This document shows, one piece after another, positions 37,618 to 57,732 of a DNA stretch of 64,000 bases. How positions within the stretch are numbered: position 1 is the stretch's first letter; every line of letters starts with the position of its first letter. The position numbers and the translations under genes were made by a program. Location: NCBI GenBank assembly GCA_964291405.2, contig OZ219926.1:1088001-1152000 (forward strand). The letters are read 5' to 3'. Below the pieces are notes generated by a model. It ran no database searches and was not told where the DNA came from. It saw only the letters and a list, made by a program, of their open reading frames with translations. Source of the DNA: Thermodesulfobacteriota bacterium. Its GTDB lineage: Bacteria > Desulfobacterota > Binatia > Bin18.

Positions 37618-37636
37618 CGGGCCACAGGAGGGCCGC

Positions 37637-40600: not shown

Positions 40601-41752
40601 CGGCCCGATGAGATTGATCCCCATATCGATCCCACCAAAGTCGACCTCTGGGCCTACAGCTATCGCTCCGTGCAGCGCCCCCTCGTTCGTGTCCGTGAAG
40701 AGATTGGCGAAGAAGCCATTCCGAATCCGTACTGGCGCTTTGACGAACGCTACGCCAACCAGATCGGGGTAGGCCAACATGGCGACCTGCCCGGCGAGTT
40801 CAAGTTTCAGTATGGGGCGGCGGTGCTGCATGGCTCCGCGCTTGACCAGTCCCACTATGCCATCCACGGCTCCCTGTTTGTCTTGGTACCGGATGACGAC
40901 CCCGCAGGTTCGCGCACCTTTCCGCCGTTTCAGGGCAATGGTGGGGGGCCGAGCGGTGGCCCCCTCTTTACGCTCAAGGGAGAGGAGATCGATCTCTTTA
41001 TCCATCTGACCGGAGTCCGACCCGGCAGTGTATTGGAGACCGGCAACACCTTTGCCCTTGTCGGGGCCATCGGTCCCACCCTGCCCGCCCAGGTAACCTA
41101 CACCGTTACTGCCCCGGATGGCAGCCAACGGACCTTCAGCGGACAGGCGAATGAAATTGGGTATTACTATGAGCCGGAGGATAACTTCATTGTCGACCAG
41201 CCGGGGCGATACACCGTTGATCTGCAAGTCACGTATGATGGGAGTACCTCCGCTGGGCAAGTGACCGCGCCCTTTCCCCAGGGAGACGTACTCGGCACGG
41301 CCCGGGGACGTTTCTCCGTGTATGTCGTCTCGCCCCATAGTATGCCGTTGACTGTGGACTTGCCTCGGCATGATTTCCTGACGGCACCATCGGACTTCAC
41401 GGTCACGGCCAGTACACCAACAGAGATGACGCTTACGAGCGGGCATATGACAGCGTTGATGCCGGGCGTGGTACTGGAGGATGGGCCACTGTCGGTGGAG
41501 GCCAACGGGCTGACATATGATTACAATCCCGTGAGTCTGGCTGCTGGAGTCCCGATCCTGGATGTAGAACGCTTTGGCCAGCCGGTCGCGGCGGATGTAG
41601 TCACGGTGAGTCTGTTTGGGGAGGGGACGGACAGCGAAGGCCAGCCGAGTTATGCAGCACGAGTGGTGACATTGCACGGGGCAGAGTTCCTCAATCTGAC
41701 ACCGGTCGCGCCTAGCCCCAATGCGATCCGTGACCTGGAACCGCTGGAGTAA
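37637..41752 (+). CDS. Giant secreted protein A: three carboxypeptidase-regulatory-like repeats plus ~1000 aa uncharacterised beta-rich region
   Basis: Signal peptide ending ASA-Q; repeats of V.LSG.V...G.PV..A; ends NAIRDLEPLE. Confidence 0.85.
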   Translation: MKKLSTILRLLLLIVLLGWTGVITQPASAQQTVTLSGRVTDAAGNAVSGATVNLEDPGWVGQETDANGNYRLSVAPRTYRLRVRPRHGPLIAQKIEGLRLSMNTTRNFVLEEGVTLSGQVTANGQPVPHPWLWVVNDEGQEVSFNSANASGHYSLGVPTGTYKVNVYSEDFLGTTVEGVAITQDTVLNITLESGVLLEGTVVDDAGQPVPDAQVCARLPTERPYGHTCSEADPGGRFQLSVAPEVYVVTATPLAPLHPTRHRLEVSGAGVTDLVLTVSRDPTPFVPDDPPKAALISISPPPVDGEVTVTGAAGSVAPHSTVVATTLETGTFTTAQATASGSFTARVFAPASTSVLIKADPFGPSVAQFLPAPGDETDHPIRLSNGEQGGSHTALAGLSGTILRVADPSGAGIPSGGAGRIYWDRLPAWTFQGSINTQTLAPGDPLQVRGRVQIDSPALQGVSALQVVTRLELERLSDTDGSSILRRNTFASTFVTPTGLPIEREPRSWNAGLSQFQDAPLVKTSSTQAEAEVNLTLALPPDLPAGYYRPFLDFDLPEIPQEEPPSHSILTLTHSPRRSSPLEARLPIIQVGSPAQPRLYWTLFFDTLSNGSRGVVAVEDADRFGIAQRILTSSETFVIPRLGMASGQPLTYRLEPFVPTVSIANGAQGNLPTPPRIPFQFPSGSLTVTIHRPDGTETVLGPAPFVQPRLKSLVDDEGDLLDLGGGHITNAYQLSTMDPRFEVSFAQDGLHVITVEGTIDDIWGNTWTGGGTYEVQVGRVLALDTAVLPGTHFEVGDGFNPGLVVSPPMTAEVEVRLQHIPHSDVSQLQEQVIRGRTNRFGYFQPAGNSVIFEQPGEYRVDITVRGRDDRGQLWMGSRTWGGIVAPINPTIVAHGRRGIDDQDTIGPQWFTRDQIGIPVGGSHVHFPFQSGDVTWLENADASIPLLTFHDPSRQLTELLRPRADTIPLGFGAGSFAERVVVGETPLFLSRPDEIDPHIDPTKVDLWAYSYRSVQRPLVRVREEIGEEAIPNPYWRFDERYANQIGVGQHGDLPGEFKFQYGAAVLHGSALDQSHYAIHGSLFVLVPDDDPAGSRTFPPFQGNGGGPSGGPLFTLKGEEIDLFIHLTGVRPGSVLETGNTFALVGAIGPTLPAQVTYTVTAPDGSQRTFSGQANEIGYYYEPEDNFIVDQPGRYTVDLQVTYDGSTSAGQVTAPFPQGDVLGTARGRFSVYVVSPHSMPLTVDLPRHDFLTAPSDFTVTASTPTEMTLTSGHMTALMPGVVLEDGPLSVEANGLTYDYNPVSLAAGVPILDVERFGQPVAADVVTVSLFGEGTDSEGQPSYAARVVTLHGAEFLNLTPVAPSPNAIRDLEPLE

Positions 41753-41766
41753 GGGGAGCAGACCTC

Positions 41767-44700
41767 ATGCACAAGCCAAATTCGGTCCTACGTCTCCTGC
41801 TCCTAATCGTCCTCCTTGGCTGGACGGGAGTTATTACACAGCCCGCCTCAGCCCAACAGACCGTCACCCTGTCCGGGCGGGTCACCGACACCGCTGGCCA
41901 GCCCGTGTCCGGGGTGACCGTGAATCTGAGTCGCTTACCGAACTGGGTCTGGGTTGACGGGCAGGAGACAGACGGCAACGGGGCCTATCGCTTCTCGGTG
42001 CCGCCAGGAACCTACCTCCTTCAGGTGCAGCCTCCCGGCCCGCTCATTGCCCAAGAGATAGAGCTGACGCTCTCAACGAATACCACGCACAACATTGTCT
42101 TGGAGACCGGGGTGACGCTGTCGGGGCGAGTGACCGGCCCTGCCCGCCAGCCCGTGCCGTGGGCATGGCTATCCGTCCGTAACGATGCCGGTCAGCAGAT
42201 CAGTTTCGGTCAGGCAGACGCGTCCGGCCACTACAGCCTCGGCGTGCCCATGGGAACCTATCAGGTCGACGTGTATCACGAGGACTTCATAGACCTGAGT
42301 CTGGAGGGGGTCACAGTGGCCCAGGCCACCGTCCTCAACATCACTCTGAACTCCGGGGTGATGCTGAGAGGCAAAGTCGTGGACGCTGATGGTCAGCCCG
42401 TACCGGACGCAGAGGTCTGTGCCCGCCTACCCGCTGAGCAGCCGTGGGAAGGCGTTTGTTCTGAGACCGGTCCTGAAGGCCGCTTTCAACTCAGTGTCGC
42501 TCCGGAGGTGTATGTCGTCACGGCCACCCCGTTAGCTCCTCTCCAACCGACCCGCCTCCGACGGCTGGAGGTCAGTGAGGAAGGAGTGACGGACCTCGTA
42601 CTGACGGTGAGCCGGGACCCCACGCCGTTCGTGCCCGATGATCCTCCCAAGGCTGCGCTTATCAGCATCTCCCCGCCGACGGCAGACGGTGAAGTAACGG
42701 TGACTGGAACGGCGGGCTCGGTTGCTCCCCAGAGTGCGGTCGTTGCCACGACTCTGGAGACCGGGCATTTCACTACGGCCCAAGCCACGGCTAGTGGAAG
42801 TTTTACGGCGACCCTGTTTGCGTCGGCAGGCACATCAGTCCTCGTCAAAGCCGACCCGGACGGCGCGGCTGTCAGACGGTTTTTGACCACCTCTGGAAGA
42901 GCGCTTATCATTCTTTTTAGCAACGGGGAGCAAGGCGGGGATTCCAGTGCACTCGCAAGCCTCTCCGGCACGATTCTCCGCGTACCCGACCCTCCAGGCG
43001 CCGGCATTCGGATCGGCAGCGCCGGACGGACCGATTGGCGAGAGCCTGGGCTGCCGGCCTGGACCTTCCAGGGCTCCATCAATACCCGGACCCTCGCTCC
43101 CGGTCATCCTCTACAGGTCCATGGCACGGTCCAGGTGGATTCGCCAGCTTTACAGGGGGTGGACGCGCTCCAGGTGGGGACGACCCTCAGGCTTGAGCGG
43201 CTCTCCGACGCCGAGGGGGCGAGTATCCTTCGCCGCAACACTTTTGCGTCCACCTTCACCACCCCCACCGGGTTGCCGATTGAACGGTCCCCCCTACGTT
43301 GGGATGCGGGTTTAGACGTGTCCCGACAAATACCTTTGGTCAAAAGAGTCGCCACGCAGGCCGAGGCGGAGGTCGACCTGACCCTCACCCTGCCGTCTGA
43401 CTTATCCGCCGGATATTATCGCCCGTTTCTGACGTTCTACTTTCCAGAGATGCCGGTGGAGAATCCGCCCAGCCGCTCAGTCATCAAGATAGTACACTTT
43501 GCGGGCCGAGGTTCGTTTAACGAAGCCCACCTGCCGATTATTCGGGTAGGCAGGCCCGCTCCTCCACGCCTGTATTGGCCGCTTCTCTTGGATACGTTCA
43601 GCAATGGGTCACGTGGGATTCTCGCAGAGGAAGACGCGGACCGCTTCGGGACAGCGCAGCGAGTACTGACCCCGTCGGACACGTTCGTGATCCCACGACT
43701 GAGCGCAGCCTCGGGCCAACCGCTGACCTATCGCCTCGAACCGTTTGTCCCCACTGTTGGACTGAGCGACCGAGATATCCCAAGCCCACCCCGTATTCCC
43801 TTCCAGTTTCCCTCCGGGAGTCTCACCGTCACGATTCGCCAGCCCGATGGCTCTGAGAGGGTCCTCGGTCCTGCACCCTTCGTGCAATCTCGACTCAAGA
43901 GTCTTGTGGATGAAGAAGGCGTTCTCCTCGAGAATGGGGGCGGGCATATCAGCGACGCCTACCAACTCAGCACCATGGACCCCCGCTTTGAAGTCGAGTT
44001 TACCCAAGATGGTCTCCATATCATTACCGTAGAAGGCACGATTAATGACATCTGGGGGCATACCTGGAGTGGGGGCGGCACCTACGAAGTCCATGTCGGT
44101 CGGGTCTTAGCCCTGGATACGGCTGTGTTGCCCGGCACCCACTTTGAGGTCGGCGATGGCTTCAATCCGGGCTTAGTCATCTCCCCACCGCTGACGGCGG
44201 AAGTGGAGGTCCGGCTCCAGCACGTCCCGCACTCGGATGCCAGCCAGCTGGAGGAGCGAAAGGTCCGGGGCCGGACGAACCGCTTTGGGTATTTCCAGCC
44301 TGCGGGCAACAGTGTGGTGTTCGAGCAGCCGGGTGAGTACCGGGTCGATATCACGGCGCGGGGCGAGGATGCACAGGGACGGTTATGGATGGGCTCACGC
44401 ACCTGGGGCGGAGTGGTAGCCCCCGTCAATCCGACCATTGTCGCCCACGGGAGACGGGGCGTTGATAAGCAGGACACGATTGGGCCGCAGTGGTTCTTTT
44501 TCGACGACATCCCCCTGCCTGAAAGTGATAATCCGCATGTCCCGTTTCCCTTTCAGTCGGGCGATGTGACCTGGCTCAAAGAGGCAAGGTTAGGCTCCGC
44601 CATCCCGATGGTGACTTTTCACGACCCGAGTCGTCAGCTCACGAGGCTCCTGCGACAAAGAGGGGGTGAGGACCAAGTCCCTCTGCTCAGCCCCGGTAGC

Positions 44701-45897
44701 TTCGCCGAGCGGGTGGTGGTGGGTGAAACGCCGCTGTTCTCCAGTCGGCCCGATGGCATTGATCCCCATCTTGACCCCAGCAAGGTGGACCTCTGGGCCT
44801 ATAGCTACAGCTCGTCCCAGCGCCCCCTCGTGCGGGTCCGCGAGGAGATTGGCGAAGATGCGATACAGTCAGCGTACTGGCGTTTTGATGATCGCTACGC
44901 CAAGCAAATTGGGGTGGGTCAACACGGTGACCTGCCCGGCGAGTTCAAGTTTCAGTATGGGGCGGCGGTGCTGCACGGTCCGGCCCTTGACCAAGCCCAC
45001 TATGCCATCCACGGTTCGCTGTTTGTCCTGGTGCCCGATGACGATCCCTTGGGCCAGCGCACTTTTCCCCCGTTTCAGGGGAACGGTGGCGGGCCAAGCG
45101 GCGGCCCCCTCTTTACCCTTAAAGGCGAAGAGATTGATCTCTTCATCCATCTGACCGGGGTCCGGCCGGGGAGTGTGTTGGAGACAGGCAATACCTTCGC
45201 CTTGGTCGGTGCTATTGGCCCTACGTTACCGGCCCAGGTAACCTACACCGTCACCGCCCCGGATGGCAGCAAACGAACCTTCAGCGGTTGGGCCAATGAA
45301 ATCGGGTATTACTATGAGCCGGACGATAATTTCATCGTGGACCAGCCTGGGCGGTACACGGTTGATCTGCAAGTGACATACGATGGGAGTACTTCCGCCG
45401 GGCAAGTGACCGCGCCGTTTCCGCAAGGCGACGTGTTGGGTACGGCGCGGGGCCGTTTCTCGGTGTATGTCGTCTCTCCCCACAGCTCTCCCCTCACCGT
45501 GGACCTACCCCGGCACGACTTCCTGACGGCACCAGCGGACTTTACGGTCACAGCCAGCGCGTCTAGTGGACTGACGCTCACCGAGGGGCATATAACAGCC
45601 TTGATGCCGGGAGTGGTGCTGGAGGACGGGCCACTAACGGTGAGGAACAACGGACTAACCTATGATTACGATCCGGTGGGCTTGGCCGCGGGGGTGTCGA
45701 TCCTGGATGTGGAGCGGAATGGGGTCCCAGTGGCGGCGGATGTCGTCACGGTGAGTCTATTCGGACAGGGGACGGACAGCGAAGGTCAGCCGAGTTATGC
45801 AGCGCGAGTGGTGACATTACACGGGCCGGAGTTCCTAAGCTTAACGCTGGTCGCGCCCGGCCCCAATGCGATCCGCGATCTGGAACCGCTGGAGTAA
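41767..45897 (+). CDS. Giant secreted protein B, full-length paralogue of A
   Basis: Collinear with A, same signal peptide core, ends NAIRDLEPLE. Confidence 0.85.
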   Translation: MHKPNSVLRLLLLIVLLGWTGVITQPASAQQTVTLSGRVTDTAGQPVSGVTVNLSRLPNWVWVDGQETDGNGAYRFSVPPGTYLLQVQPPGPLIAQEIELTLSTNTTHNIVLETGVTLSGRVTGPARQPVPWAWLSVRNDAGQQISFGQADASGHYSLGVPMGTYQVDVYHEDFIDLSLEGVTVAQATVLNITLNSGVMLRGKVVDADGQPVPDAEVCARLPAEQPWEGVCSETGPEGRFQLSVAPEVYVVTATPLAPLQPTRLRRLEVSEEGVTDLVLTVSRDPTPFVPDDPPKAALISISPPTADGEVTVTGTAGSVAPQSAVVATTLETGHFTTAQATASGSFTATLFASAGTSVLVKADPDGAAVRRFLTTSGRALIILFSNGEQGGDSSALASLSGTILRVPDPPGAGIRIGSAGRTDWREPGLPAWTFQGSINTRTLAPGHPLQVHGTVQVDSPALQGVDALQVGTTLRLERLSDAEGASILRRNTFASTFTTPTGLPIERSPLRWDAGLDVSRQIPLVKRVATQAEAEVDLTLTLPSDLSAGYYRPFLTFYFPEMPVENPPSRSVIKIVHFAGRGSFNEAHLPIIRVGRPAPPRLYWPLLLDTFSNGSRGILAEEDADRFGTAQRVLTPSDTFVIPRLSAASGQPLTYRLEPFVPTVGLSDRDIPSPPRIPFQFPSGSLTVTIRQPDGSERVLGPAPFVQSRLKSLVDEEGVLLENGGGHISDAYQLSTMDPRFEVEFTQDGLHIITVEGTINDIWGHTWSGGGTYEVHVGRVLALDTAVLPGTHFEVGDGFNPGLVISPPLTAEVEVRLQHVPHSDASQLEERKVRGRTNRFGYFQPAGNSVVFEQPGEYRVDITARGEDAQGRLWMGSRTWGGVVAPVNPTIVAHGRRGVDKQDTIGPQWFFFDDIPLPESDNPHVPFPFQSGDVTWLKEARLGSAIPMVTFHDPSRQLTRLLRQRGGEDQVPLLSPGSFAERVVVGETPLFSSRPDGIDPHLDPSKVDLWAYSYSSSQRPLVRVREEIGEDAIQSAYWRFDDRYAKQIGVGQHGDLPGEFKFQYGAAVLHGPALDQAHYAIHGSLFVLVPDDDPLGQRTFPPFQGNGGGPSGGPLFTLKGEEIDLFIHLTGVRPGSVLETGNTFALVGAIGPTLPAQVTYTVTAPDGSKRTFSGWANEIGYYYEPDDNFIVDQPGRYTVDLQVTYDGSTSAGQVTAPFPQGDVLGTARGRFSVYVVSPHSSPLTVDLPRHDFLTAPADFTVTASASSGLTLTEGHITALMPGVVLEDGPLTVRNNGLTYDYDPVGLAAGVSILDVERNGVPVAADVVTVSLFGQGTDSEGQPSYAARVVTLHGPEFLSLTLVAPGPNAIRDLEPLE

Positions 45898-45956
45898 GTC
45901 TTCCCCCGTCTGATGTGGGGCTAACGGCGATGGAAGACGAACGGGGAAGCCCTGTC

Positions 45957-47762
45957 ATGCGTATCGTCTCCCCCTTATTGCGGAGTCTATACTTCCTAGC
46001 GTTGATTATCTGCGTCCTCCTCTGCTTCCCCACCTCCACCCCCGCCACAAGCAGTATCGGTCTCACCCCAGACGGCACGACCGTCTTTGTCGTCAACCCG
46101 GACTCCGGCTCCGTATCCGCAATCGACGCCGCCTCAGCGACCACGCGGGCCGAACTCATCGTGGGTCGTGACCCCCGCATGCTCACCATCGGGCCGGACG
46201 GCCAGCGGCTGTACGTCACCAGCCAAGCCTCGGCAACACTGACCATCCTGGAGACCCAGCCGTTCTCGATCCTTACTAAACTCCGCGTCGGCCCGGAGCC
46301 CTATGGCGTCGTCGCCGACCCCACCGGCCACCTCGTATACGTGGCCGCATCCGGCGCCGACCGGATTGACGTCATCGACACCGAACTCGTCCAAGTCGTG
46401 GACACCATCCCCGTACAACCCCGGCCCAAGGGCCTCGCCATTTCTGAAGATGGGACCCGGCTCTACGTCACCCATTTCCTGTCCGGCACGGTCTCGGTTA
46501 TTGATCTGGAAAGCCGAAGCGTGCTCGAAGTCATTGCCACCGGCCCCGAGAGCAACATCGCCCAACGTATCGCCCTGCACCCCACGAATGGCCGCGCCTA
46601 TCTGCCCCATATCCGCTCCAATGTCAGCAACCCCCACCCCCTGTTTGATACCACGCTCTTTCCGGTCGTCTCCGTCATTGACCTGGCAACCGACCAACAT
46701 CTGCTCCCCGAACGGCTGGAACTCTCGGTCGTAGACCGGCCGGTCAATCTCCCCTTCGATCTGGCCCTGTCGTCCGATGGGCAACGGATGCATATCGTCC
46801 ACCTGGGGAGTGGGGATCTGTCGGTCATTGATCTGGAAACCCGCCAAGTGCTCGCGCATATCGAGGTGGGGGATGGGCCACGGGGCATCGTACTCACCCC
46901 GGACGACCGCACCGCCTATGTGGCGAATGCACTCTCGGGCGATGTGTCGGTCATTGATCTCCGTACCTTCGCAGAAGTCACCCGCATTCCGGTGACCACC
47001 AGCCCACTCTCGCCAGAGTTGAAACGAGGGAAACTCTTGTTTATCTCCAGCCGCTCAACCCGCATCTCCCGGGACCAGTGGATGAGTTGCGAGAGCTGTC
47101 ATGCAGACGGGGAGCAGGATGGGCGGACCTGGCTGTTTCCCGACGGTCCCCGCAACACGACGAATCTCAGAGGGCTGGCGGATACCCACCCGCTGCACTG
47201 GAGTGCGGACCGAGATGAGGTGCAGGATTTTGAATTCACCATCCGGGAGTTGCAGGCGGGGACGGGGTTGCTGGAGGACCCGCATCTCGAACTCGGATCG
47301 CCCAATACGGGGCGGTCGGCTGATCTGGATGCGCTCGCGGCGTTTATCGAATCGCTGCAACCCAAGCCCAGTCCGTTTCGACGGGCAGACGGAACGCTCA
47401 CGTCGGAGGCGGAGCGTGGGCAAGCCATCTTTCACCGGGCGGATGTGGGCTGCGCGGACTGCCATATCCCACCGCTTTTTACCGATTTGCAGGTGCATGA
47501 TATCGGCACGGGTCACGGGCCAGGTGAACTCTTGGGGCCGGCGTTTGATACGCCATCGCTGCGGGGGGTCTGGCATACGGCTCCCTATCTGCACGATGGG
47601 CGGGCGCCCACTCTTCGGGATGTGGTGGTCACTCATAACCCTACTGGCCAACATGGTCAGACCTCGCAGTTATCGGAGGTGGAGGTGCAAGATCTAATCG
47701 CCTTTCTGCGGTCTCTGGAGGGAGACAAGAGCCGGGTGCAGGACTTGGAACGGCTGGAGTAA
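45957..47762 (+). CDS. YVTN beta-propeller fused to a di-heme cytochrome c peroxidase/MauG-like domain
   Basis: Repeats of PDG.RLYV....VSVID; CESCH and CADCH; GPRNT and FDTPSLRGV..TAPYLHDG motifs; ends SRVQDLERLE. Confidence 0.85.
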   Translation: MRIVSPLLRSLYFLALIICVLLCFPTSTPATSSIGLTPDGTTVFVVNPDSGSVSAIDAASATTRAELIVGRDPRMLTIGPDGQRLYVTSQASATLTILETQPFSILTKLRVGPEPYGVVADPTGHLVYVAASGADRIDVIDTELVQVVDTIPVQPRPKGLAISEDGTRLYVTHFLSGTVSVIDLESRSVLEVIATGPESNIAQRIALHPTNGRAYLPHIRSNVSNPHPLFDTTLFPVVSVIDLATDQHLLPERLELSVVDRPVNLPFDLALSSDGQRMHIVHLGSGDLSVIDLETRQVLAHIEVGDGPRGIVLTPDDRTAYVANALSGDVSVIDLRTFAEVTRIPVTTSPLSPELKRGKLLFISSRSTRISRDQWMSCESCHADGEQDGRTWLFPDGPRNTTNLRGLADTHPLHWSADRDEVQDFEFTIRELQAGTGLLEDPHLELGSPNTGRSADLDALAAFIESLQPKPSPFRRADGTLTSEAERGQAIFHRADVGCADCHIPPLFTDLQVHDIGTGHGPGELLGPAFDTPSLRGVWHTAPYLHDGRAPTLRDVVVTHNPTGQHGQTSQLSEVEVQDLIAFLRSLEGDKSRVQDLERLE

Positions 47763-47825: not shown

Positions 47826-48710
47826 TCACAGCCAGCCCGATTTGCGACGGCTTGGCGGTTCCACACCGGTCAGACAAAGCCGCACCGCGCTCCAGGCCGC
47901 GTGAAATGCGCTGCGCAAGGCAACCGCGTCAACGGCGAGTACGCGCATCCAGACACCCGCATTGTCAGGCAGAATCGACGCACCGGTATAGATGTCGGGA
48001 AGAGGATCGAGCGCCGCTCGTAAGGCGGTCACCAATTCCTCGGTATCGTGGTCCGACACCACCCAGAACGTCCCCTGCGTCTGATAGCGCCGCAGGGCCG
48101 AGGGCAGACTCGTAACGAACTCGTGACCGCTCATCTCGAAGCGGTCCACACAGCGACGCTGTCCGTCCGGTCGCTGGAATACGGTTTCGCTGAAAATCGA
48201 ACCAAACGGACGGCCCAAGGCTTCCGGGTCGTGCAGTCCAAAGGCATCGCCGCTAATGGCCGTCGCGCCTTCTTCGACAGCGATATGGACCGAAGAGCGA
48301 AAGTGCGCTTGGGGGAATAATGCGAGCGGGTCGGGCAGGTATTCGACAAAGCTGCCCTTGCCCGCTCGAATGGAAACCTGTTGTGTGGCGACCCTCCCCT
48401 CCCGCATCGAGTGGACAACAGTCGCCCCTTGGGTGGTCAGATGCACACACGCGCCGTCTTCCACCGAAAAATCAAGCGTTAAGCGCTCATTTTCATACAC
48501 CCCACCAGAGATGGACTGGAGCATCAGCGTCAGCATCCCGTGCGGAGCCCGGTCGAGACAGAACGGCTGGGTAAGGGTGAAGGGATAGGTCGTCCGTTGC
48601 TCGGCGAGAAAGGTTTGACCGGAGGGGTCACGTTTGAAGCTGAGGGAAACGTGCGGGGACGTAACGGAGCATGGCTCAACCGAGAGCCCAGGGGCGGATG
48701 CACTGCTCAT
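47826..48710 (-). CDS. ureD: Urease accessory protein UreD/UreH
   Basis: SGGVYENERL...HLTTQGATVV...EYLPDP; in the ure cluster. Confidence 0.85.
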   Translation of the reverse strand: MSSASAPGLSVEPCSVTSPHVSLSFKRDPSGQTFLAEQRTTYPFTLTQPFCLDRAPHGMLTLMLQSISGGVYENERLTLDFSVEDGACVHLTTQGATVVHSMREGRVATQQVSIRAGKGSFVEYLPDPLALFPQAHFRSSVHIAVEEGATAISGDAFGLHDPEALGRPFGSIFSETVFQRPDGQRRCVDRFEMSGHEFVTSLPSALRRYQTQGTFWVVSDHDTEELVTALRAALDPLPDIYTGASILPDNAGVWMRVLAVDAVALRSAFHAAWSAVRLCLTGVEPPSRRKSGWL

Positions 48711-48734: not shown

Positions 48735-50444
48735 TCAGCGTAAAAAATACTTTCTGGCGAGCGGGACTTCATCCGCGGGCTCGCACGTCATCAGCTCGCC
48801 ATCGGCGTAGACCTCATGCGTGTGCGGGTTGACGGTGATGTCCGGGCAAGTGTCGTTATGCAGCATATCCCCCTTCCCCACCGCGCGCGTGTTCCGAATC
48901 GGCAACATGGGTTTGTGGAGTTCGAGTTTGCGCGGAATATCAGCCTCAAGCGCCAGGGAACTGGCGAAGACCGCACTCAGGGCAGACGGCGCGCTGCCCA
49001 CCGCTCCCCACATGGGACGCTGGATAATCGGCTCAACCGGGAAGATGCAGCCACTCGCGTCTCCCATGATGGACCAGGCCATAAAGCCGCCCTTCATCAC
49101 CATCAACGGTTTGGCACCAAAAAATGCCGCTCCCCACAGTACCAGATCGGCCATCTTCCCGGCCTCCAGCGAGCCGACGTAATGGTCAATGCCCATCGCC
49201 CGGGCCGGGTTGATGGTATATTTGGCGATATAGCGTTTGATCCGCTCGTTATCGGCGCGCGCTGTTCTTTCCGTGGGAAGACGGCCGCGTTGGTCCTTCA
49301 TTTTACTCGCCAGCCGCCAGCAATTCGTAATGGTTTCATGCACCCGCCCCATCCCCTGCGTGTCCGCGGCAAACATCGAGATCGCGCCCAGGTCGTGCAA
49401 CACGTCTTCCGCGGCCATGGTCTGCGGCCGAATGCGGCTTTCGGCAAAGGCGACATCTTCCGGTAAGCGCCAATTCAGCATATGGGCGTCCATGGTCATG
49501 GGCAGGGCTTCGTCGAGCGCGTTGCGCGAGTAGGGGTTGGTCGGATTGGTGGAAGACGGCAGGCAGTTGGGCTCGCCCGCCACACGGATGAGATCGGGCG
49601 CGTGGCCGCCGCCGGCCCCCTCGACGTGGTACATATGAATCGTCCGACCGGCGATCGCGGCCAGCGTGTCCTCACAGTAGCCGGCCTCGTTGATGGTGTC
49701 GGTATGGAGCTGAACCTGAAAATCGTATTGATCCGCCACCGTGAGCGCGCAGTCTATGGTGGCCGGCATGGCTCCGAAATCCTCGTGGACCTTGACGCCG
49801 ATCGCCCCACCGGCCACGCTCTCCTCAATCGCGGCGCCGACGTGCGAGTTGCCCCGTCCCAGAAAGCCGAAATTCAAGGGATAGTGCTCGCAGGCTTTGA
49901 GCATCTTGGCCAGATTATTCGGCCCCGCGCAGCTGATATCGAAATGCGGCCCCATGGTGCCGCCAATAATGGTCGTAATGCCGCTGGCCAGGGCGTGTTC
50001 ACACTGCTGCGGACACAGGAAGTGGGCGTGCGCCTCCACTCCCCCTGGGGTAATGATCAGGCCATCGCCGTGCACGATGGTCGTACAGGGACCGCAGACC
50101 AGCTCGGGCTGGACCCCGTCCTGGATGGCGGGATTCCCGGCTTTGCCCACACCGACGATCTTACCCTCCTTAATACCGATATCGCCCTTCACGATGCCCA
50201 GCACCGGGTCGATGATCGTGGCGTTCTGGACCACCATATCCAGCCCACCCGACGCCGCGGTCGTGGCGGCGTGAAAGCCCATCCCGTCGCGCATCACCTT
50301 GCCGGCCCCGGTCAGACACTCGTCGCCATAGACCGCAGAGTCGTGCTCAACCTCGGCCAGCAGCGAGGTGTCGCCCAGACGCACCATATCGCCCGTTGTT
50401 GGCCCATACGTGGCCGCATAGGCCGCCCGTGTCAGTCTGGCCAT
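48735..50444 (-). CDS. ureC: Divergent urease alpha subunit (urease-like dinickel amidohydrolase)
   Basis: [45 protein letters not shown] and [11 protein letters not shown] motifs. Confidence 0.9.
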
Positions 50445-50452
50445 GTTCCCTC

Positions 50453-51157
50453 CTATGCGCCCTTAAAACCGCGCTCTTTGGCCCGTTGGAGAGCGGCCCG
50501 CTTGACCGCTTCGGAATGAATAGAGCCGTTGGTGAGATTGTTGAGACCGGTGACTTCGCCGCTGCCGCCCAGGGCGACTAACGGAACGGCTTTCTTCACC
50601 CCGGGCTCAAAGCGCACCGACGCGCCCGCCGGCACGTCCGGACGCATGCCGAACGCCTGCGCCCGATCAAACTCCAGGGCCTTGTTGGCTTCAAAGAAAT
50701 GAAAATGGCTGGCCACCTGGATGGCACGATCTCCGGTATTGACGACCTCCAGGGTCAGGGTTTTGCGGCCTGCGTTCAGGTCTATCTCTTCGTCAGGTGT
50801 GATGATCCCACCGGGTCGCCCATACGGTGATTCAGGCAGGGGCTCGGAGCCGGGGCGGATCGGATTATACACGGCAATGAGCTTGGTCCCATCCGGGAAC
50901 ATCCCATCAACCATAATCCGGGATACCAGTTGGGCAACGCTGGGCAGCACGTCGTCTGTCGTCAGCAGCGTTGACCCCAGGCTGACCAGCTCCGCGACCG
51001 ATTTCCCCTCGCGCGCGCCCTCAAGCAGTTCGTCCGTGATATAGGCAATGGCCTCGGCCGCGTTGAGCTTGAGCCCTTTGGCCTTATGGCGGCGCGCAAG
51101 TTCAGCCGCCATAAAAATAGTGAGGCGTTCGTTTTCCGTAGGCGTGAGGTTCAGCAT
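50453..51157 (-). CDS. ureAB: Fused urease gamma-beta subunit
   Basis: GLKLN...FPDGTKL (gamma) joined to [19 protein letters not shown]...VRFEPG (beta). Confidence 0.92.
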
Positions 51158-51213
51158 GGGCGTTCCTCCTGGAGATCGACTACTGAGCGTGGGGTCTGCA
51201 CCAGGCGCACAGG

Positions 51214-51888
51214 TCAGTTTGCAAACAACCGCGTCGCCTGGGTCTCATGACGCATCATGGCAATATCCGCGACCGGCGTAAAGCTGCTGAGAAACTCGGG
51301 TAAGGGCGTGACAAGCAGCGCGGTCAGCGTGGGGCGTATGTGCTGCACAATCAGTTGGGCCTGGATATGGCTTACAAAGCCGAGCCGGATGGCGGCACTC
51401 ACAAACGCCATGCCCTGGAGATGGCCGGACAGCAGACTGGCCTGCTCCGCGTCTAACCCGACCCCCCGCCAGACCAGCCCTTGAACAACCGGGAGATGAC
51501 TCCACGCCTGCCCGGTTTTGACACGCTCCAGATAGTCGGCCGCACGGGGCGTCTTAAGCCGGTCGTGCACGCGCAGCAAGACCCGGCCGGCCCGCTGCGA
51601 TACGACGCGCAACTCGCGCGCAAGCGAGAGCGCTTCCAGTTCTGCATCAACCACAGCAACTTTTTCCAGCTCGCCCGCGGCGCGATGCGCCCACACCAGG
51701 GCGGGTCGGTCGCAGCATGCCCAACGATGGTGGAGTTGACCCTGGACAAAGTGCAGCAAGGTCTCGGCGTCATGCACATAGGAATCGGTGAAGAGCGTCT
51801 CCAACCCCCACGAAGCCGCAAAGCCACCACCGGGGAAAAAGCTGTCGCCGTGTTGCAACGCAGTCAGCAGGGCAATCGAGTCAGTCAT
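51214..51888 (-). CDS. ureF: Urease accessory protein UreF
   Basis: [20 protein letters not shown]...SAAIRL...[13 protein letters not shown]. Confidence 0.9.
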
Positions 51889-51908: not shown

Positions 51909-52223
51909 CTATTCTGGAGATGTCGTAAGTTCCTCATACGGCGATACCCGGCGTTGAATTTCTGCTCCCAGGGCGTCTTCGGCCTTTTCCAGATCATAAT
52001 GCAGCTGTAGATTCAGCCAAAATTGGGCACTATTCCCAAAATACCGTGCCAAGCGGAGGGCCATATCCGGTGTAATACGTCGCTTGCCATGAACGATGGC
52101 ATTGATCCGTGGAGGCGGCACATCGATATCTCGGGCCAGTTTATTCTGACTGATTTGCAGCGGTTCAAGGAATTGGTGGAGGAGTAATGCCCCTGGCAGG
52201 ATCGGTTTGAGTTTCTTCCCCAT
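51909..52223 (-). CDS. higA: HigA antitoxin (second copy)
   Basis: PILPG...ISQNKLA...ITPDMALRLARYFGNSAQFWLNLQ. Confidence 0.9.
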   Translation of the reverse strand: MGKKLKPILPGALLLHQFLEPLQISQNKLARDIDVPPPRINAIVHGKRRITPDMALRLARYFGNSAQFWLNLQLHYDLEKAEDALGAEIQRRVSPYEELTTSPE

Positions 52224-52232
52224 GGTTTTCTC

Positions 52233-52511
52233 CTAGTGATAATCCACAATTTCTACGTCATAGGCATTCCCGTCTCTCCAGGTGAAACAGAGCCGCCATT
52301 GACGGTTGATCCGAATACTCCACTGGCCTGCACGGTCTCCTTTCAATCTCTCTAACCGGTTACCGGGCGGGACTCTCAGATCATTCACGTCCGTTGCTGC
52401 GTGCAGCAACGAGAGTTTTTCCCGAGCCTCCCGTTCAAATCTCTGAAAGCGACGCGCTCGCTGACGCAAGAACAGCCGATGCGTGTCTTTAGTGCCAAAT
52501 GTCCGAATCAT
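52233..52511 (-). CDS. higB: HigB toxin (second copy)
   Basis: PPGNRLERLKGDRAGQWSIRINRQWRLCF...VEIVDYH. Confidence 0.9.
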   Translation of the reverse strand: MIRTFGTKDTHRLFLRQRARRFQRFEREAREKLSLLHAATDVNDLRVPPGNRLERLKGDRAGQWSIRINRQWRLCFTWRDGNAYDVEIVDYH

Positions 52512-52714
52512 TTATATAACGTTTACCGTATGGACAATCGGCCGTCCGGCCTTCCATCAGCCGCGAGCCGCCTTTGCTTCGGCTGTCATGCTGCTCCCTC
52601 ATTAGCCGAGGCCGACTCCAAATACAAACTCGCCTGGGGTCGATTTTTTTGTTAAGTCAGGCTGTCTATGCAAGAGGCGTATCTTCGGTTCTTCCCCGAG
52701 GAGAACCCGGTGCT

Positions 52715-53208
52715 ATGACCACACCTGTGGAGCCTCCAGACAAACATCCGTTCGTCCTTCACCCTCATCGCACCTTTACGACCCTGAGTCTGCCCGTCAT
52801 GGCCTCTCTCGTGGTCGAGCCGTTTGCCAGCCTGGTCGATACCGCATTTGTGGAACGGCTGGGCGCGGCTTCGGCAGCCGGACTTGGCGCGGCAACCGCG
52901 CCAAGTCCGGCTGCCGAAGCCGCGCCGTGACCCAGCCGCTCAACGCACTGTCCTTTGTCACAGACGGTATTCATTGGGGGACTGGTGACTATGCCTATCT
53001 GCGCAACGCCATGATCGTCGCCACGGGGACGGGTGTTCTCGTCCTGCTGTGTATCGACCCGACGCACGCTCAGGCGTTTGCTCAGGTGTGGCTGGCGATG
53101 GCGGTGTGGATCGTCATCCGGGCGATGTTTGGCCTGCTGCGTATCTGGCCGGGCATAGGCAAGGCGGTTCTGCGGCTGTCAGGGTCGGACTCGGTGGTCC
53201 ATCGGTAA
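52715..53208 (+). pseudogene. MATE/DinF efflux transporter remnant with internal deletion
   Basis: N-terminus LSLPVMASLVVEPFASLVDTAFVERLG joined to C-terminus QPLNALSFVTDGIHWGTGDYAYLR, with the middle missing. Confidence 0.8.
52862..52926. repeat. Perfect 31-bp inverted repeat (3-nt loop) at the MATE deletion junction
   Basis: GGCGCGGCTTCGGCAGCCGGACTTGGCGCGG-CAA-CCGCGCCAAGTCCGGCTGCCGAAGCCGCGCC. Confidence 0.9.
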
Positions 53209-53967: not shown

Positions 53968-54411
53968 ATGTCTCGCTCGTTCTCTGGTGGCTGCGCGTGT
54001 GGCACAATTCGATACGAGTGTACGGCCGACCCGGTGTTCTCGTGGAATTGCCACTGTCGGGACTGTCAACGCGCGAGCGGCAGCGCCTTTTGTCCGGTCT
54101 CGTATGTCCCCAAGACCGCGCTCTCCAGCACCGGAGCCGTTACCTATCACGAAGTGAAGGCCGAAAGCGGGCGGGCCGTACGTCGCGGCTTTTGTCCGCA
54201 GTGTGGCTCACCGGTCTTTATCCTGGCCGAGCTTGTTCCCGACCTGATAGGCGTCTGGGCCGCCAGCCGGGATGAGCCGGATCAGTTTCAGCCCGCAGTC
54301 AATGTCTGGACCGCGAGCGGCCAGCCCTGGGATGAGATGCACGCCGCCCTGCCGGCCTGTCCAAAAGCCCCGGCTGACGCGGAGATGCAGCAGATATTGA
54401 GCTCTAAGTGA
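53968..54411 (+). CDS. GFA/CENP-V family protein
   Basis: GGCACG, CHCRDCQR and FCPQCGS motifs. Confidence 0.9.
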   Translation: MSRSFSGGCACGTIRYECTADPVFSWNCHCRDCQRASGSAFCPVSYVPKTALSSTGAVTYHEVKAESGRAVRRGFCPQCGSPVFILAELVPDLIGVWAASRDEPDQFQPAVNVWTASGQPWDEMHAALPACPKAPADAEMQQILSSK

Positions 54412-54504
54412 AAGATCCGAGATCAAGATCCATATTTTCCCTTGACGCGGCTCCAGCGTTTTTCATACAGTCGAGAGCAATCCCACGCAAAGAGGAGGCA
54501 CTCT

Positions 54505-54912
54505 ATGATCACGCGCAGCAACCCGGATGTGGATTATATTCCGGACGAGGTCTTCCAGACCTACGGATTCACCCAAAACATCAGAGCCGGCAATACACTC
54601 TATCTGTCGGGCGTCGCCCCCTTCAAGGGCAACCAGGAGCAGGTTGAGGTCGTCGGGGTCGGAGATATCCGCGCCCAGGTTGCCCACACCCTGGAGATCA
54701 TCAAACGGTGTCTGGCCGCCGAAGGGGCAACGTTCGAAAACTGGGTCGTCCAAACCGTCTATACCACGAATATGACCGAACTCCAGAAAACGGCTGACAT
54801 CTTTCGCGAGGCATTCGGGGACTATACGCCGACGAGTACCTGGGTCGAGATCAAGGGCCTGTTTGTTCCCGAGCAGATGGTCGAGATCAACGGGACGGCC
54901 ATTTTAGACTGA
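54505..54912 (+). CDS. RidA-family protein
   Basis: AGNTLYLSG...PTSTWVEIKGL..PEQMVEI; RBS GAGGAGG. Confidence 0.85.
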   Translation: MITRSNPDVDYIPDEVFQTYGFTQNIRAGNTLYLSGVAPFKGNQEQVEVVGVGDIRAQVAHTLEIIKRCLAAEGATFENWVVQTVYTTNMTELQKTADIFREAFGDYTPTSTWVEIKGLFVPEQMVEINGTAILD

Positions 54913-54979
54913 GTCCATCGTCCTTTGCTGAACGGCACCCACGTTCCTTGTCTATAGCCTGTATTAAAGGAGTTCCGTC

Positions 54980-56425
54980 ATGCCAGACCAATTTACGTAT
55001 TTGGATGCGACCGCCCAGGCCGAACTCGTCAAAAACGGAGAGGCTTCGCCCCTGGAGCTGGTCGATGCCGCGATTGCCCGGATCGAACAGCTCAACCCCC
55101 AGCTCAACGCGGTGATTCACCCCTTGTTTGACAAGGCGCGCACCCAGGCCCAGGCTGCCGACCTGCCGGACGGTCCCTTCCGCGGTGTGCCGTTTGTAAT
55201 GAAAGACCTGCTCGGCGGACCGGCCGGGGAGCCGTTGCATAATGGCATGCAGTTCCTGAAACGGCTGAACTTCACCTCGAAGCAGGACCCCTATCTGGCA
55301 GTGAAGTTTCGCGAGGCCGGTTTTATCAGCGTGGGTCGCACCAACACACCGGAGTGGGGGCTGATGGGAACGACCGAACCCGCGGCCTACGGCCCGACCC
55401 ATAACCCGTGGAATCTCGATCATTCTCCCGGCGGCTCAAGCGGCGGCAGCTCAGCCGCGGTGGCGGCGCGCCTGGTCACGGTCGGGCATGGGGGCGACGG
55501 CGGCGGGTCGCTACGTATTCCAGCCAGCATGTGTGGCATTGTCGGGCTTAAACCCAGCCGTGGCCGGGTGTCGTTTGGGCCGGGCATGGGCGAGTGCTGG
55601 CATGGGATGGCCAACGAGGGCGTGATGACGCTCTCGATGCGCGACATGGCCGGTGTGCTCGATAGTATGCAGGGCGTCATGCCGGGCGACCCCTATGCCG
55701 CTCCCACGCCTGTTCGGCCGTATACCGAAGAGGTCGGTCGCGACCCCGGCAAGCTCCGCATCGGCCTCATGCTCCAGCGGCCTCGCAATGACGCCCCCCT
55801 GCACCCGGAATGCAAGCGCGCGGTCGAGCAGACCGGCAAGCTGCTCGAATCGCTCGGCCACACGGTCGAGATCGCGCATCCCGAAGCCTATGACGAATCT
55901 GAGTGGCTCGACCACTGGATCCTTGTGGTCAACGCCCACTCGGCCCTGACCGCGGATGAAATCGAAGCCGCCGCCGGGCAGCGCATTGGCGAGGGCGATA
56001 TTGAGCCGTACGCCTGGCGCTTTGTGGAAGAGGGCCGCAAGATTTCGGCAACCAGTTATCTGGCGTCAATGAACTGGCTGCACGCCTGGGCACGCCGCCT
56101 GGCCAGTTGGTGGACTGACGGCTTTGATCTGCTGGTCACCCCGACTCTGGGTGAGCCGCCGCCGCGCCTGGGCGATATGGGCGGGCCCAGCGCGGACAAT
56201 CTCGCCAAGTGGGAGCGCAATCTTGAGGTCATTCCCTTTACGCCGGCGAATAATGCCTCGGGCCAGCCGGGGCTGTCGCTGCCGCTCCACTGGACCCCGG
56301 ACGGCCTGCCGGTCGGAGTCCATTTTGTCCCGGCCTATGGCCAGGAGGATCTGCTGCTGCGGATTGGGTCCCAGATCGAGCAGGCCCAACCGTGGATGGA
56401 GAAGCGTCCGCCGGTGTGCGCGTAA
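54980..56425 (+). CDS. Amidase-signature enzyme (copy 1)
   Basis: GVPFVMKDL, PGGSSGGS and DGGGSLRIPAS (Ser-cisSer-Lys triad). Confidence 0.93.
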   Translation: MPDQFTYLDATAQAELVKNGEASPLELVDAAIARIEQLNPQLNAVIHPLFDKARTQAQAADLPDGPFRGVPFVMKDLLGGPAGEPLHNGMQFLKRLNFTSKQDPYLAVKFREAGFISVGRTNTPEWGLMGTTEPAAYGPTHNPWNLDHSPGGSSGGSSAAVAARLVTVGHGGDGGGSLRIPASMCGIVGLKPSRGRVSFGPGMGECWHGMANEGVMTLSMRDMAGVLDSMQGVMPGDPYAAPTPVRPYTEEVGRDPGKLRIGLMLQRPRNDAPLHPECKRAVEQTGKLLESLGHTVEIAHPEAYDESEWLDHWILVVNAHSALTADEIEAAAGQRIGEGDIEPYAWRFVEEGRKISATSYLASMNWLHAWARRLASWWTDGFDLLVTPTLGEPPPRLGDMGGPSADNLAKWERNLEVIPFTPANNASGQPGLSLPLHWTPDGLPVGVHFVPAYGQEDLLLRIGSQIEQAQPWMEKRPPVCA

Positions 56426-56459
56426 GCCTCGCTCCCTTGGGGAACGTGTGATGCGAAAA

Positions 56460-56552
56460 GGAACCCACCCCGGCCTTCGGCCACCCCTCCCAGGAGGGGA
56501 TGTGTGCTGCTCCCCTCTTGGGAGGGGTGCCGCGCTAGCGGCGGGGTGGGTT
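56460..56552. repeat. Inverted pair of REP-like units (ACCCACCCC...CCCCTCC...GAGGGGA family)
   Basis: 56460-56501 and an inverted unit at 56511-56552; the same family occurs at 61007-61113. Confidence 0.75.
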
Positions 56553-56645
56553 ATCTCCGGCCCAGTGGCCCCCCACGTTTGGCGAGCGCTGGTTCCTGGG
56601 AATGGGCAGCACACGTCAGGGAGGAGAGTTGCATGAGGAGGAAGC

Positions 56646-57707
56646 ATGGAATTCGGGATTGCCTATCCGGCCCGGCTTGATGCCTGGAAAGACCTGGTCC
56701 GAGCCGAAGAACTCGGCTTCAGCTATGCCTGGTTCTATGACTCGCAGATGCTCTACAGCGACGTATACGCCTGCCTGGCTCTGGCGGCCGAGCATACCAA
56801 AACGATCAAGCTCGGAACCGGCGTTGCGATTCCCAGCAGCCGGCTCGCCCCGGTTACGGCGCACTCGATTGCCACCATTAACCAGCTTGCCCCCGGGCGC
56901 GCCATTCTCGGCATCGGCACGGGTTTTACCGGTCGCAACACCATGGGCCTGCCGCCCGTCCGGCTGGGGCCGACCCGGGAATATATGCAGCAGTGTCGGG
57001 CGCTGTTACGCGGGGAAGAAGTCCTCTTCCGCGAAGGCGAGCGCGAACGCTGGATTCGCTTTCTGCACCCCGAACACGGCTATATCAACCTGCAAGACAA
57101 CATTCCGATTTACTTTGCGGCCAACGGCCCCAAGGCGATGGAACTGACCGGGGAGGTTGCGGACGGCTGGATTACCGTTTTCTCGGATGCCGAACATTTC
57201 AGCCTCGACCTGGCAACCGTGGCGCGGGGCGCGGAGAAAGCGGGCCGGTCGGTCGAGGCGATTGCCCGCATGGCCCTGACAACGACCTGCCTGCTCCAGC
57301 CGGGTGAGTCGCCGATCTCGCCCCGTGTCATCGAACGGGTTGGGCCGTACGCCATTCTGCCCCTGCACGCCATGTGGGAAGGGTCGGCGGTGGCCGTAGA
57401 GCAGTCGCCCCTGGGTCAGCTCTACGCGCGCTACCGTGACCATTATATTGCCAAGATGCAGACTCCCCGGGATCGTCGCTATCTTGAAGTGCATGAGGGG
57501 CATTTGATCTATCTCAAACCGGGGGAAGAAGACTACCTGACCGAAGACCTGATTCGGACCTCGTCGCTGACCGGGACAAGCGAGGAGATTATCGCCCGCA
57601 TCAAGGCGCTCGAAGCCGCCGGCCTGACGCAGATTGCCGTTCAGGTTGTAACGGACGGCCGGGAACTTATAGAAGAGTTTGGTCGAGAAGTGATTGCGAA
57701 GTATTAA
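56646..57707 (+). CDS. LLM-class flavin-dependent oxidoreductase
   Basis: AWFYDSQM, LGTGVAIP, AANGPKAMELTGEVADG. Confidence 0.9.
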   Translation: MEFGIAYPARLDAWKDLVRAEELGFSYAWFYDSQMLYSDVYACLALAAEHTKTIKLGTGVAIPSSRLAPVTAHSIATINQLAPGRAILGIGTGFTGRNTMGLPPVRLGPTREYMQQCRALLRGEEVLFREGERERWIRFLHPEHGYINLQDNIPIYFAANGPKAMELTGEVADGWITVFSDAEHFSLDLATVARGAEKAGRSVEAIARMALTTTCLLQPGESPISPRVIERVGPYAILPLHAMWEGSAVAVEQSPLGQLYARYRDHYIAKMQTPRDRRYLEVHEGHLIYLKPGEEDYLTEDLIRTSSLTGTSEEIIARIKALEAAGLTQIAVQVVTDGRELIEEFGREVIAKY

Positions 57708-57732
57708 TCATCAGCCATAAGGAGGAAAGAGC

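Follow-up and report, generated by a model that had tools for sequence, protein, structure and literature searches.

The question raised by this locus is whether a second urease, in which the catalytic core is intact and the immediate surroundings have been rebuilt, still hydrolyses urea. The stretch of DNA analysed here (the window, 64,000 nt; positions 1,088,001 to 1,152,000 of contig OZ219926.1) comes from the 4.95-Mb genome of a sponge-associated Candidatus Binatia bacterium, and the named public relatives at 95-99% identity are all metagenome-assembled genomes (MAGs) of Candidatus Binatia. The gene in question (nt 48735..50444, minus strand) is a single open reading frame (ORF) of 569 amino acids (aa), P0001, which is a homologue of the urease alpha subunit UreC and the third gene of a tight operon. 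An initial annotation of the same sequence had described it as a urease paralogue with intact nickel ligands and a rebuilt substrate pocket, probably not a urea hydrolase. On the evidence given below, P0001 is very probably a functional enzyme matured by the accessory proteins UreD, UreF and UreG. That urea is its physiological substrate is an evenly balanced proposition, and so the full statement, that this is a working nickel-dependent second urease which still hydrolyses urea behind a rebuilt lid and pocket wall, is in our judgement about as probable as its contrary.

The operon has the order ureF, ureAB, ureC, ureD, with intergenic gaps of 56, 8 and 24 bp, and consists of the following genes.
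51214..51888, minus strand: ureF of the variant cluster, 224 aa (Pfam UreF PF01730, E 2.8e-27).
50453..51157, minus strand: fused ureAB (gamma/beta subunits), 234 aa (NCBIfam NF009671, 324 bits, cut-off 243; Pfam Urease_gamma and Urease_beta).
48735..50444, minus strand: variant ureC, P0001, 569 aa (TIGR01792, 758.2 bits, cut-off 680; Pfam Urease_alpha and Amidohydro_1).
47826..48710, minus strand: ureD of the variant cluster, 294 aa (Pfam UreD PF01774, E 5.7e-35).
P0001 comprises an N-terminal Urease_alpha domain (PF00449, E 1.2e-45) and an amidohydrolase (beta/alpha)8 barrel (PF01979, E 8.5e-61), and does not reach the thresholds of the narrower equivalogs NF009685, NF010591 and NF009834. 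Since ureD starts 24 bp past the ureC stop, there is no ureG between these two genes, and neither ureE nor ureG was present among the ORFs of the neighbourhood. No ureE was found among the ORFs called beside the inspected Binatia clusters either, although no search was aimed at this gene.

The genome also carries a canonical urease, at another locus. Exactly two proteins exceeded the cut-off of TIGR01792, the variant (758 bits) and a canonical UreC (C3:2431402-2433105, 978 bits), which scores 220 bits above P0001. The view of P0001 as a paralogue is thereby borne out, and the second, canonical ureC that the initial annotation suggested looking for does exist. The canonical locus includes ureA, urtABCDE (UrtA 580 bits, above its cut-off), ureB, ureG, ureD, a UreE-like ORF (assigned by eye) and ureF, and the ureG at C3:2441648 is the only one in the genome. 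The two UreF proteins share about 32-34% identity. As the canonical UreC of the same genome has every canonical motif, the differences seen in P0001 are real departures and not lineage noise.

The catalytic core of P0001 is that of a urease. The protein aligned from end to end (HMMER) with solved urease alpha chains, including those of S. pasteurii (1s3t_C, E 7.8e-190) and K. aerogenes (1ejw_C, E 3e-188), and 32 distinct PDB sequences matched it at E <= 1e-20. Its metal ligands H139, H141, K218, H247, H273 and D361 align with H137, H139, K220, H249, H275 and D363 of S. pasteurii, and the catalytic or substrate-polarising residues H220, D222, H321, R337 and G278-G280 are also kept. The residues listed initially in K. 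aerogenes numbering as intact (H134, H136, K217, H246, H272, D360, H219, D221 and H320) correspond in that order to H139, H141, K218, H247, H273, D361, H220, D222 and H321 of P0001, using the S. pasteurii numbering with an offset of 3 (PMC7433671), and were all found in place. Ligands and catalytic residues were invariant in an alignment of 63 sequences reaching down to 40% identity. An AlphaFold2 model of P0001 (predicted local distance difference test, pLDDT, 90.4; predicted template modelling score, pTM, 0.93) superposed in Foldseek on 6zny/5a6t, which include the S. pasteurii urease, with a template modelling (TM) score of 0.97 and a root-mean-square deviation of 1.6 A. The model keeps the flap helix-turn-helix (309-320/328-335), and its residues 161-170 have a pLDDT of 79.

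The segments around this core are altered as follows.
50022..50030, minus strand: HAH, with ligands H139 and H141 and an Ala between them (Ile/Val in canonical enzymes).
49914..49964, minus strand: Ala170-type loop, residues 161-177, with a 4-residue gap relative to canonical GGGTGPAEGSKATTVTPGPWN.
49776..49793, minus strand: KVHEDF, residues 218-223; the carbamylatable Lys218, His220 and Asp222 are kept, and Trp is replaced by Phe.
49440..49520, minus strand: mobile flap, residues 309-335; MTMDAHML (316-323) replaces M(L/I)MVCHHL.
49344..49367, minus strand: ADTQGMGR, residues 360-367; the ligand Asp361 is kept, with Ser to Ala, Ser to Thr and Ala to Gly around it.
49029..49055, minus strand: SGCIFPVEP, residues 464-472, replacing NASIPTPQP.
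In addition, LTGAGK occupies residues 44-49, where canonical enzymes have KFGGGK. The segment that holds Ala170 falls in the 4-residue deletion and PHFDISCA stands in its place. Of the flap residues, the catalytic His321 is kept. The Cys and the second His have been exchanged, and so have a His and an Asp further upstream, the Asp for Pro; the Cys and second His are 100% conserved among 28 canonical sequences, and P0001 has MDAHML in place of MVCHHL. All of the motif changes quoted in the initial annotation (LTGAGK, the loop, MDAHML, ADTQGMGR, HEDF, SGCIFPVEP) are present, the loop is shorter by the number of residues it gave, and the only correction needed concerns the strand of the gene. Further departures can be added to its list, namely V to D at 319 in the flap, H to A at 313 and D to P at 315 where the flap helix begins, D to E at 137 (two before the first His ligand), I to A at 140 (between the His ligands) and W to N at 176 (after the loop).

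These changes are shared by a clade. An alignment of 174 sequences was divided into 28 canonical, 52 type 2, 13 intermediate, 68 type 3 and 13 Binatia-type enzymes; as loop and flap motifs served to define the groups, tallies at these same positions are circular, and it is the tree (see below) that backs the grouping independently. Compared with canonical enzymes, the Binatia clade differs throughout loop 163-176 (where His167 and Asp169 are new and Trp176 has become Asn), and has Val for Leu on either side of the carbamyl-Lys, Phe for Trp223 and Val for Thr after the ligand His273. In its flap His313 has become Ala or Gly, Asp315 Pro, Val319 Asp, Cys320 Ala and His322 Met, and S-D-S-Q-A has acquired Ala, Thr and Gly, with five changes in the following helix. 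Both this comparison and the PDB alignment place the changes mainly on the urea-contacting loop and the flap, as had been proposed.

In the S. pasteurii enzyme, the backbone carbonyls of Ala170 and Ala366 hold the urea nitrogen that is bound to Ni(2), Gly280 O and Ala366 O hold the distal one, and His222 holds the urea oxygen; Asp224 and Arg339 lock His323 (PMC7433671). The position of Ala366 is Gly364 in P0001, so that its backbone carbonyl could still serve. Judged from the alignment, all of the side-chain players in these contacts are kept, and what is altered is the Ala170-carbonyl segment and the lid.

With regard to the lid, crystallised C319 variants of the K. aerogenes urease exist among the structure matches. 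Its C319A and H321A variants are reportedly still active to a substantial degree, and there are active ureases without the flap Cys. If both points are right, the flap changes alone are no argument against urea.

The gene is under strong purifying selection and is functional. Comparison of the P0001 gene with 19/19 within-genus orthologues (94.7-98.6% aa identity; dS 0.14-0.49) gave ratios of nonsynonymous to synonymous substitution rates (dN/dS, Nei-Gojobori) of 0.025-0.072; four comparisons at 82-84% identity, where dS was saturated or undefined, were left out. Sponge metagenome DNA runs contain the window or near relatives of it, and one of these (X3) covers 30/30 bins. Two sets of RNA libraries yielded contigs from relatives about 93-95% identical, including one of 1006 nt over 49607-50612 (ureC into ureAB) and another of 587 nt over 50661-51247 (ureAB into ureF). 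These are only a weak hint of transcription, because DNA can occur in such libraries, and no meaning attaches to the parts of the operon they leave uncovered.

The occurrence of the accessory gene ureG tracks that of ureC. A ureC match was found in 35/151 genomes of a class-level sample. The genus sample (14 genomes plus that of the window) comprised 8 genomes with both ureC types, 3 with the variant only, 2 with the canonical type only and 2 with neither. The variant-only genomes (G339, G399 and G455) are single-contig assemblies, 98-100% complete, and ureG is present in 3/3 of them, but absent from 3/3 genomes without any ureC (G312, G391 and G348). G339 and G399 have lost the interval from a thiolase gene to ureG, which in the window's genome measures about 12 kb and carries porin-like genes, ureC, ureA, urtEDCBA and ureB. 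The canonical ureD, ureE and ureF have been lost as well, with a type I restriction gene at their place in G339 and a 39-aa ureF remnant in G399, and yet the canonical-type ureG is intact in both, 96-98.5% identical to that of the window's genome. As the upstream deletion may have been inherited from a common ancestor, G339 and G399 do not count as independent events. Four more distant clade members (L024, which is the G455 locus, L026, L038 and L043) have a cluster-own ureG directly after ureC, 61-63% identical to the canonical ureG, and therefore the ancestral order was F-(AB)-C-G-D. By comparison of these gene orders, the window's lineage has evidently lost the cluster ureG and would rely on the canonical copy. 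The selective retention of ureG, together with the cluster-own ureG of relatives, indicates that the variant probably needs UreG and hence nickel insertion, in line with the dependence on UreD/F plus a UreG that had been suggested for it. These natural 'knock-outs', in which the canonical urease is lost and ureG is kept, provide a clean comparative argument that one UreG can serve two structurally different ureases. One of the eight genomes with both types has a canonical ureC with one in-frame TAG (G366:C1:982413-984116) beside an intact variant ureC, which may represent further decay of the canonical copy.

The separate clade that the initial annotation suggested testing for exists. A tree of 100 sequences was built with FastTree (LG+gamma, midpoint-rooted, Shimodaira-Hasegawa (SH)-like supports), an initial 167 having been reduced by removal of representatives whose length was not within 540-600 aa and of sequences >= 88% identical to one already kept. 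Canonical ureases form one group, and a second group has the shortened loop. The latter includes a haloarchaeal enzyme from Halopenitus (in which ATTCT is still present), a second cyanobacterial copy (Chlorogloea) and the type 2 enzymes of Pseudomonas oryzihabitans, Stutzerimonas tarimensis and Paraburkholderia unamae, which keep MVCHHL and HEDW and have the loop GGSLGPITVGIDCGGAWN. Nested inside type 2 are progressively derived clades (supports 0.93-1.00), the intermediate one with MTMxCHLL, in which the Trp of HEDW and the second His of the flap disappear. They end in two sister clades (support 1.00), one being the Binatia clade with P0001 and the other the large type 3 clade. The derived clade sits on long basal branches (0.16-0.21). 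Type 3 enzymes carry the motifs MTMLAHFL and GMxxGPHFDVSCSGPN and stem, going by the names of their sources, from Burkholderiales, other proteobacterial MAGs and Geminicoccus harenae.

Parts of this lineage have been noticed before. The gene order ureEF(AB)CGD was pointed out in P. syringae B728a and Bradyrhizobium BTAi1, in a passage that leaves function untouched (PMC2492869), and an Acidithiobacillus ferrianus cluster was called 'urease 2' in a section that goes by gene order and phylogeny only (PMC8886135). Duplicated cyanobacterial ureases are described, in the relevant part of another paper, as awaiting study (PMC6737895). In a literature search of main texts, none of the ureEF(AB)CGD, type 3 or Binatia-type enzymes turned out to have been assayed, and no published name was found for the two-gene clusters of type 3; PMC12623156, 10.1101/2023.03.29.534730 and PMC13209695 have no bearing on this lineage. 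The lineage is thus already known by gene order, as 'urease 2', and as far as this search shows the derived clade with the rebuilt pocket is undescribed. Since the short loop and the A363G change also occur in 'urease 2', which keeps MVCHHL and HEDW, several of the changes originally cited as evidence of an altered substrate lose their force.

Beyond these groups, a deeper urease-like clade (P0124, P0127, P0128, P0130-P0132 and P0137; 40-52% identical to P0001), with one cluster from Candidatus Nanopelagicales, keeps HxH, KxHED and DSxGMGR and has other loops and flaps (e.g. MIISAHGM). Still deeper representatives (P0192, P0154 and P0216) are without the ligand motifs. The only names available for these deeper clades are automatic 'urease subunit alpha' labels.

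The genomic settings of the parent and sister lineages bear on the substrate. A type 2 gene occurs beside a canonical ureC (962-994 bits) in 5/5 genomes with type 2. Its clusters lie in amide-utilisation islands with AmiR (AmiR_N and ANTAR domains), AmiC-like proteins, Peripla_BP_5 ABC importers, a CN-hydrolase of the AmiE/AmiF type and FmdA/AmdA, and an N,N-dimethylformamidase (DMFase) beta-like protein (PF20254) was found in 3/4 inspected type 2 loci. The last is a protein of 800 aa (E 1e-90), encoded at L031 18598-21559, L034 3023-5818 and L037 17785-20181, in three unrelated Proteobacteria; a small ORF of 121-146 aa lies just upstream in L031 and L034, and none was called in L037. The presence of this gene beside type 2 clusters suggests a conserved amide/urea island. 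In a sample of Burkholderiales, 118/301 genomes had a ureC match at E <= 1e-100, and 21 of these had a match 56-59% identical to the type 3 query (two such matches in one genome); the nine examined as loci (L059-L067) showed type 2 motifs. The tallies for Burkholderiales and for the class Binatia each include one unpublished genome (G299 and G392, respectively), on which no claim rests. Type 3 loci consist of ure(AB)-ureC with a Urt-like ABC importer and a PRK07235 amidase, without adjacent ureDEFG, in 5/5 cases, and the closest solved relatives of their binding protein include urea-binding proteins, followed by AmiC. Both the sister and the parent lineage adjoin UrtA-like binding proteins whose closest solved relatives bind urea.

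In weighing these data, urea as the substrate is favoured by the seemingly untouched chemistry, by the fact that the lost contacts would be backbone contacts, by the urea/amide context of the parent lineage and by the variant being the sole ureC in three genomes. Nickel would be inserted into the variant by the UreD and UreF of its cluster together with the single UreG of the genome, and a urea-type C-N bond would be hydrolysed by the usual bridging-hydroxide mechanism. With urea as substrate, the variant would act as a urea-hydrolysing isozyme uncoupled from the Urt importer that accompanies the canonical urease, while the rebuilt lid and pocket wall would alter gating, affinity or inhibitor sensitivity (e.g. 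there would be no reactive flap cysteine). Several observations weigh against this reading, and would fit instead a neofunctionalised dinickel amidohydrolase, comprising the Binatia clade and type 3, that is likewise matured by UreDFG and has a physiological substrate other than urea, be it a short-chain amide such as formamide or acetamide, an N-substituted urea, a carbamate, a ureide (e.g. biuret) or another small molecule of this kind. The short loop with its new His-Phe-Asp, the loss of three bulky side chains, aromatic or His (W176N, W223F, H322M) and the re-made flap suggest a pocket that is reshaped and probably enlarged. A total of 75 positions that are >= 90% conserved in the 28 canonical UreC differ in the Binatia clade, many of them flanking the ligands, the Ala170 loop and the flap, and at several changed positions beside the active site (D137E, I140A, G169D, H313G/A and D315P) the same new residue is fixed in both sister clades, which looks like new constraint. 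Paralogues are also stacked. The variant coexists with a canonical urease in 8/11 variant-bearing genomes of the genus, so that 8/15 genomes hold two ureC types, and in the 5/301 Burkholderiales genomes with type 3 each also has a 57-59% match and at least one canonical-like match, making 3-4 ureC homologues in 5/5, which fits divergence of function. The obvious supply of urea, by an importer or from the commonest internal source, was not seen: the variant cluster never adjoins urtABCDE in the inspected Binatia loci, no UrtA above the cut-off was found in the variant-only genomes, and an arginase-family ureohydrolase was found in 0/5 genomes tested, the variant-only ones included (the control was positive in 8/14). 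Searches of five genomes for the UT urea transporter (PF03253) and AmiS/UreI (PF02293) gave no match, but as the control was silent too this is uninformative. In the type 3 operons the importer is only Urt-like (binding protein 245 bits, UrtA cut-off 493), and the linked amidase, an aliphatic-amidase homologue, is closest to the Rhodococcus amidase 3A1K, with a nitrile hydratase added at one locus; type 2 clusters for their part lie in islands under AmiC/AmiR control with genes of the AmiE/F, FmdA and DMFase-like kinds. For jack bean urease, formamide, acetamide and N-methylurea are poor substrates. That this enzyme turns them over is reported in the title of Dixon et al. 1980.

Against a change of substrate, no residue chemically required for urea has been lost and the missing contacts would be backbone atoms. 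Members of the clade differ among themselves at positions 223, 322 and 468-470, which looks like relaxed constraint rather than a new specific fit. The inspected Binatia clusters have no linked transporter or amidase that would name a substrate, the amide islands already hold dedicated amidases, so that the role of a urease among them may be no more than to bring urea into the regulon, and P0001 still passes the urease equivalog threshold. Of the claim that the protein is probably not a urea hydrolase, the rebuilt surroundings of the pocket therefore stand, while a non-urea substrate is not established. A neofunctionalised amidohydrolase is possible, and we hold that reading with some doubt; much the same tentative standing applies to its more specific form, in which a short-chain amide, substituted urea or ureide is imported by the Urt-like systems. 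That P0001 is an inactive relic kept for a structural, regulatory or moonlighting role is very improbable. The loss of ligand motifs in more distant representatives of a 50%-identity library (P0192, P0154, P0216) shows that decay of the fold does occur, and disruption of ureC2 or ureB2 in Brucella is described as leaving measurable urease activity unchanged (PMC2492869), but in the variant all ligands and catalytic residues are invariant, its dN/dS is low, UreD and UreF are encoded adjacently, and ureG has been kept selectively where the canonical cluster was lost. Scarcely credible is an accessory-independent urease with a non-nickel metal such as iron, like Helicobacter mustelae UreA2B2. Like that enzyme, the variant is a second urease and its small subunit is fused, ureDEFG are missing beside the sister type 3 loci in 5/5 cases, and the alignment score with the iron urease 3qga (621.7 bits) lies within the range of other full-length ureases (612-636). 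Nevertheless, the variant cluster has its own UreF and UreD, relatives have their own UreG as well, and of the canonical cluster only ureG has survived in the variant-only genomes; dependence on UreG speaks equally against a dead protein.

The preferred reading, a nickel-dependent second urease that still acts on urea, thus competes mainly with a change of substrate, and the outcome matters beyond this genome. Genes labelled 'urease subunit alpha' are taken to indicate urea use in studies of microbiomes and of the nitrogen cycle, including those of sponge symbioses. The present lineage passes the automatic urease threshold despite its rebuilt urea-contacting loop and lid, and it is widespread, with 13 Binatia-type and 68 type 3 members among 174 sequences, often beside one or two other ureases. 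Should its substrate or kinetics differ, counts of ureC would lead to an overestimate of urea cycling, and a nickel-dependent activity not known before would have come to light. If the substrate were not urea, this would be the first non-urea member of the urease family, extending the known chemistry of the urease nickel centre.

The surroundings of the operon in the window show signs of rearrangement. Directly upstream of ureF, after a gap of 20 bp, are a gene for a HigB-like toxin (PF05015, E 7.2e-19) and a helix-turn-helix antitoxin gene (51909-52511, minus strand). In the close relative L012 a LysE-like gene sits at this position, and the region upstream of the operon has therefore been replaced recently. 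Two short ORFs (118 and 93 aa; 52574-53208, plus strand) match the N-terminal and a later part of a 478-aa gene of L012 (6352-7788), read by eye as a MATE-type efflux protein; the window copy appears to be internally deleted, and neither piece has a Pfam match. About 2-6 kb from the operon, and conserved in L012, is a run of genes (53968-58143, plus strand) for a GFA family protein, a RidA, an AS-family amidase (481 aa, PRK07869-like, below cut-off), an F420-type LLM oxidoreductase and a second RidA, for which no link to the urease was demonstrable within this nitrogen/C1 gene run. An equation of this amidase with that of the type 3 operons was rejected, the best family being PRK07869 for the former and PRK07235 for the latter. 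Overall, the neighbours vary within the Binatia clade (toxin-antitoxin, truncated MATE gene, AS-family amidase, and RidA/LLM genes about 4.5 kb off) and are not kept in relatives at 82-84% identity. On the other side of the operon (37598-47762, plus strand) are tandem paralogous secreted proteins of 1384 and 1376 aa with near-identical N-termini and CarboxypepD_reg repeats. These are followed by a 615-aa protein in which a beta-propeller is fused to a di-haem cytochrome c peroxidase-like domain, with weak partial matches to hydrazine synthase subunits, far below cut-off. Di-haem DHOR genes also occur near 3/5 type 3 urease loci, which may be coincidence.

Compared with the canonical nickel ureases (K. 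aerogenes UreABC, S. pasteurii, H. pylori and jack bean), the variant has the same fold (TM 0.96-0.97, 50-55% identity), identical metal ligands and catalytic His/Asp/His/Arg, a gamma/beta partner and the UreD/F/G accessory proteins. It differs in a loop that is 4 residues shorter and of new sequence, in a flap that has acquired Asp and Pro but no longer has the Cys or the second His, and in the changes HEDW to HEDF, FGGGK to TGAGK and NASIPTPQP to SGCIFPVEP, these being part of the 75 altered canonical-conserved positions; unlike the canonical copy of its own genome, it is not linked to urtABCDE. The 'urease 2' lineage, within which the variant clade is nested (SH-like supports 0.95-1.00), has in common with it the fused ureAB and the gene order F-(AB)-C-(G)-D, as well as A363G and the shortened loop. 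Type 2 enzymes retain MVCHHL, HEDW, GGGK and the loop GGSLGPITVGIDCGGAWN, whereas the variant has lost these motifs, and type 2 clusters carry ureE and ureG within AmiC/AmiR amide islands, whereas the variant operon is without ureE and, in the window's genome, without a cluster ureG. Type 3, the sister clade, resembles the Binatia clade in PHFD(V/I)SC(S/A)GPN, TGAGK, HAH, the Glu before the first ligand His, the flap Pro and the lost second flap His. It differs in having Leu rather than Asp before the flap Ala, GM rather than GG at the loop start and TD(T/S)Q rather than ADTQ, and its clusters have a linked importer and amidase and no adjacent accessory genes. Finally, the iron urease UreA2B2 of H. 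mustelae (3qga, 621.7 bits) is likewise a second urease with a fused small subunit that stands beside a standard one. It is described as requiring no accessory proteins (PMC6737895), whereas the variant has UreF and UreD in its operon and a ureG that has been selectively retained.

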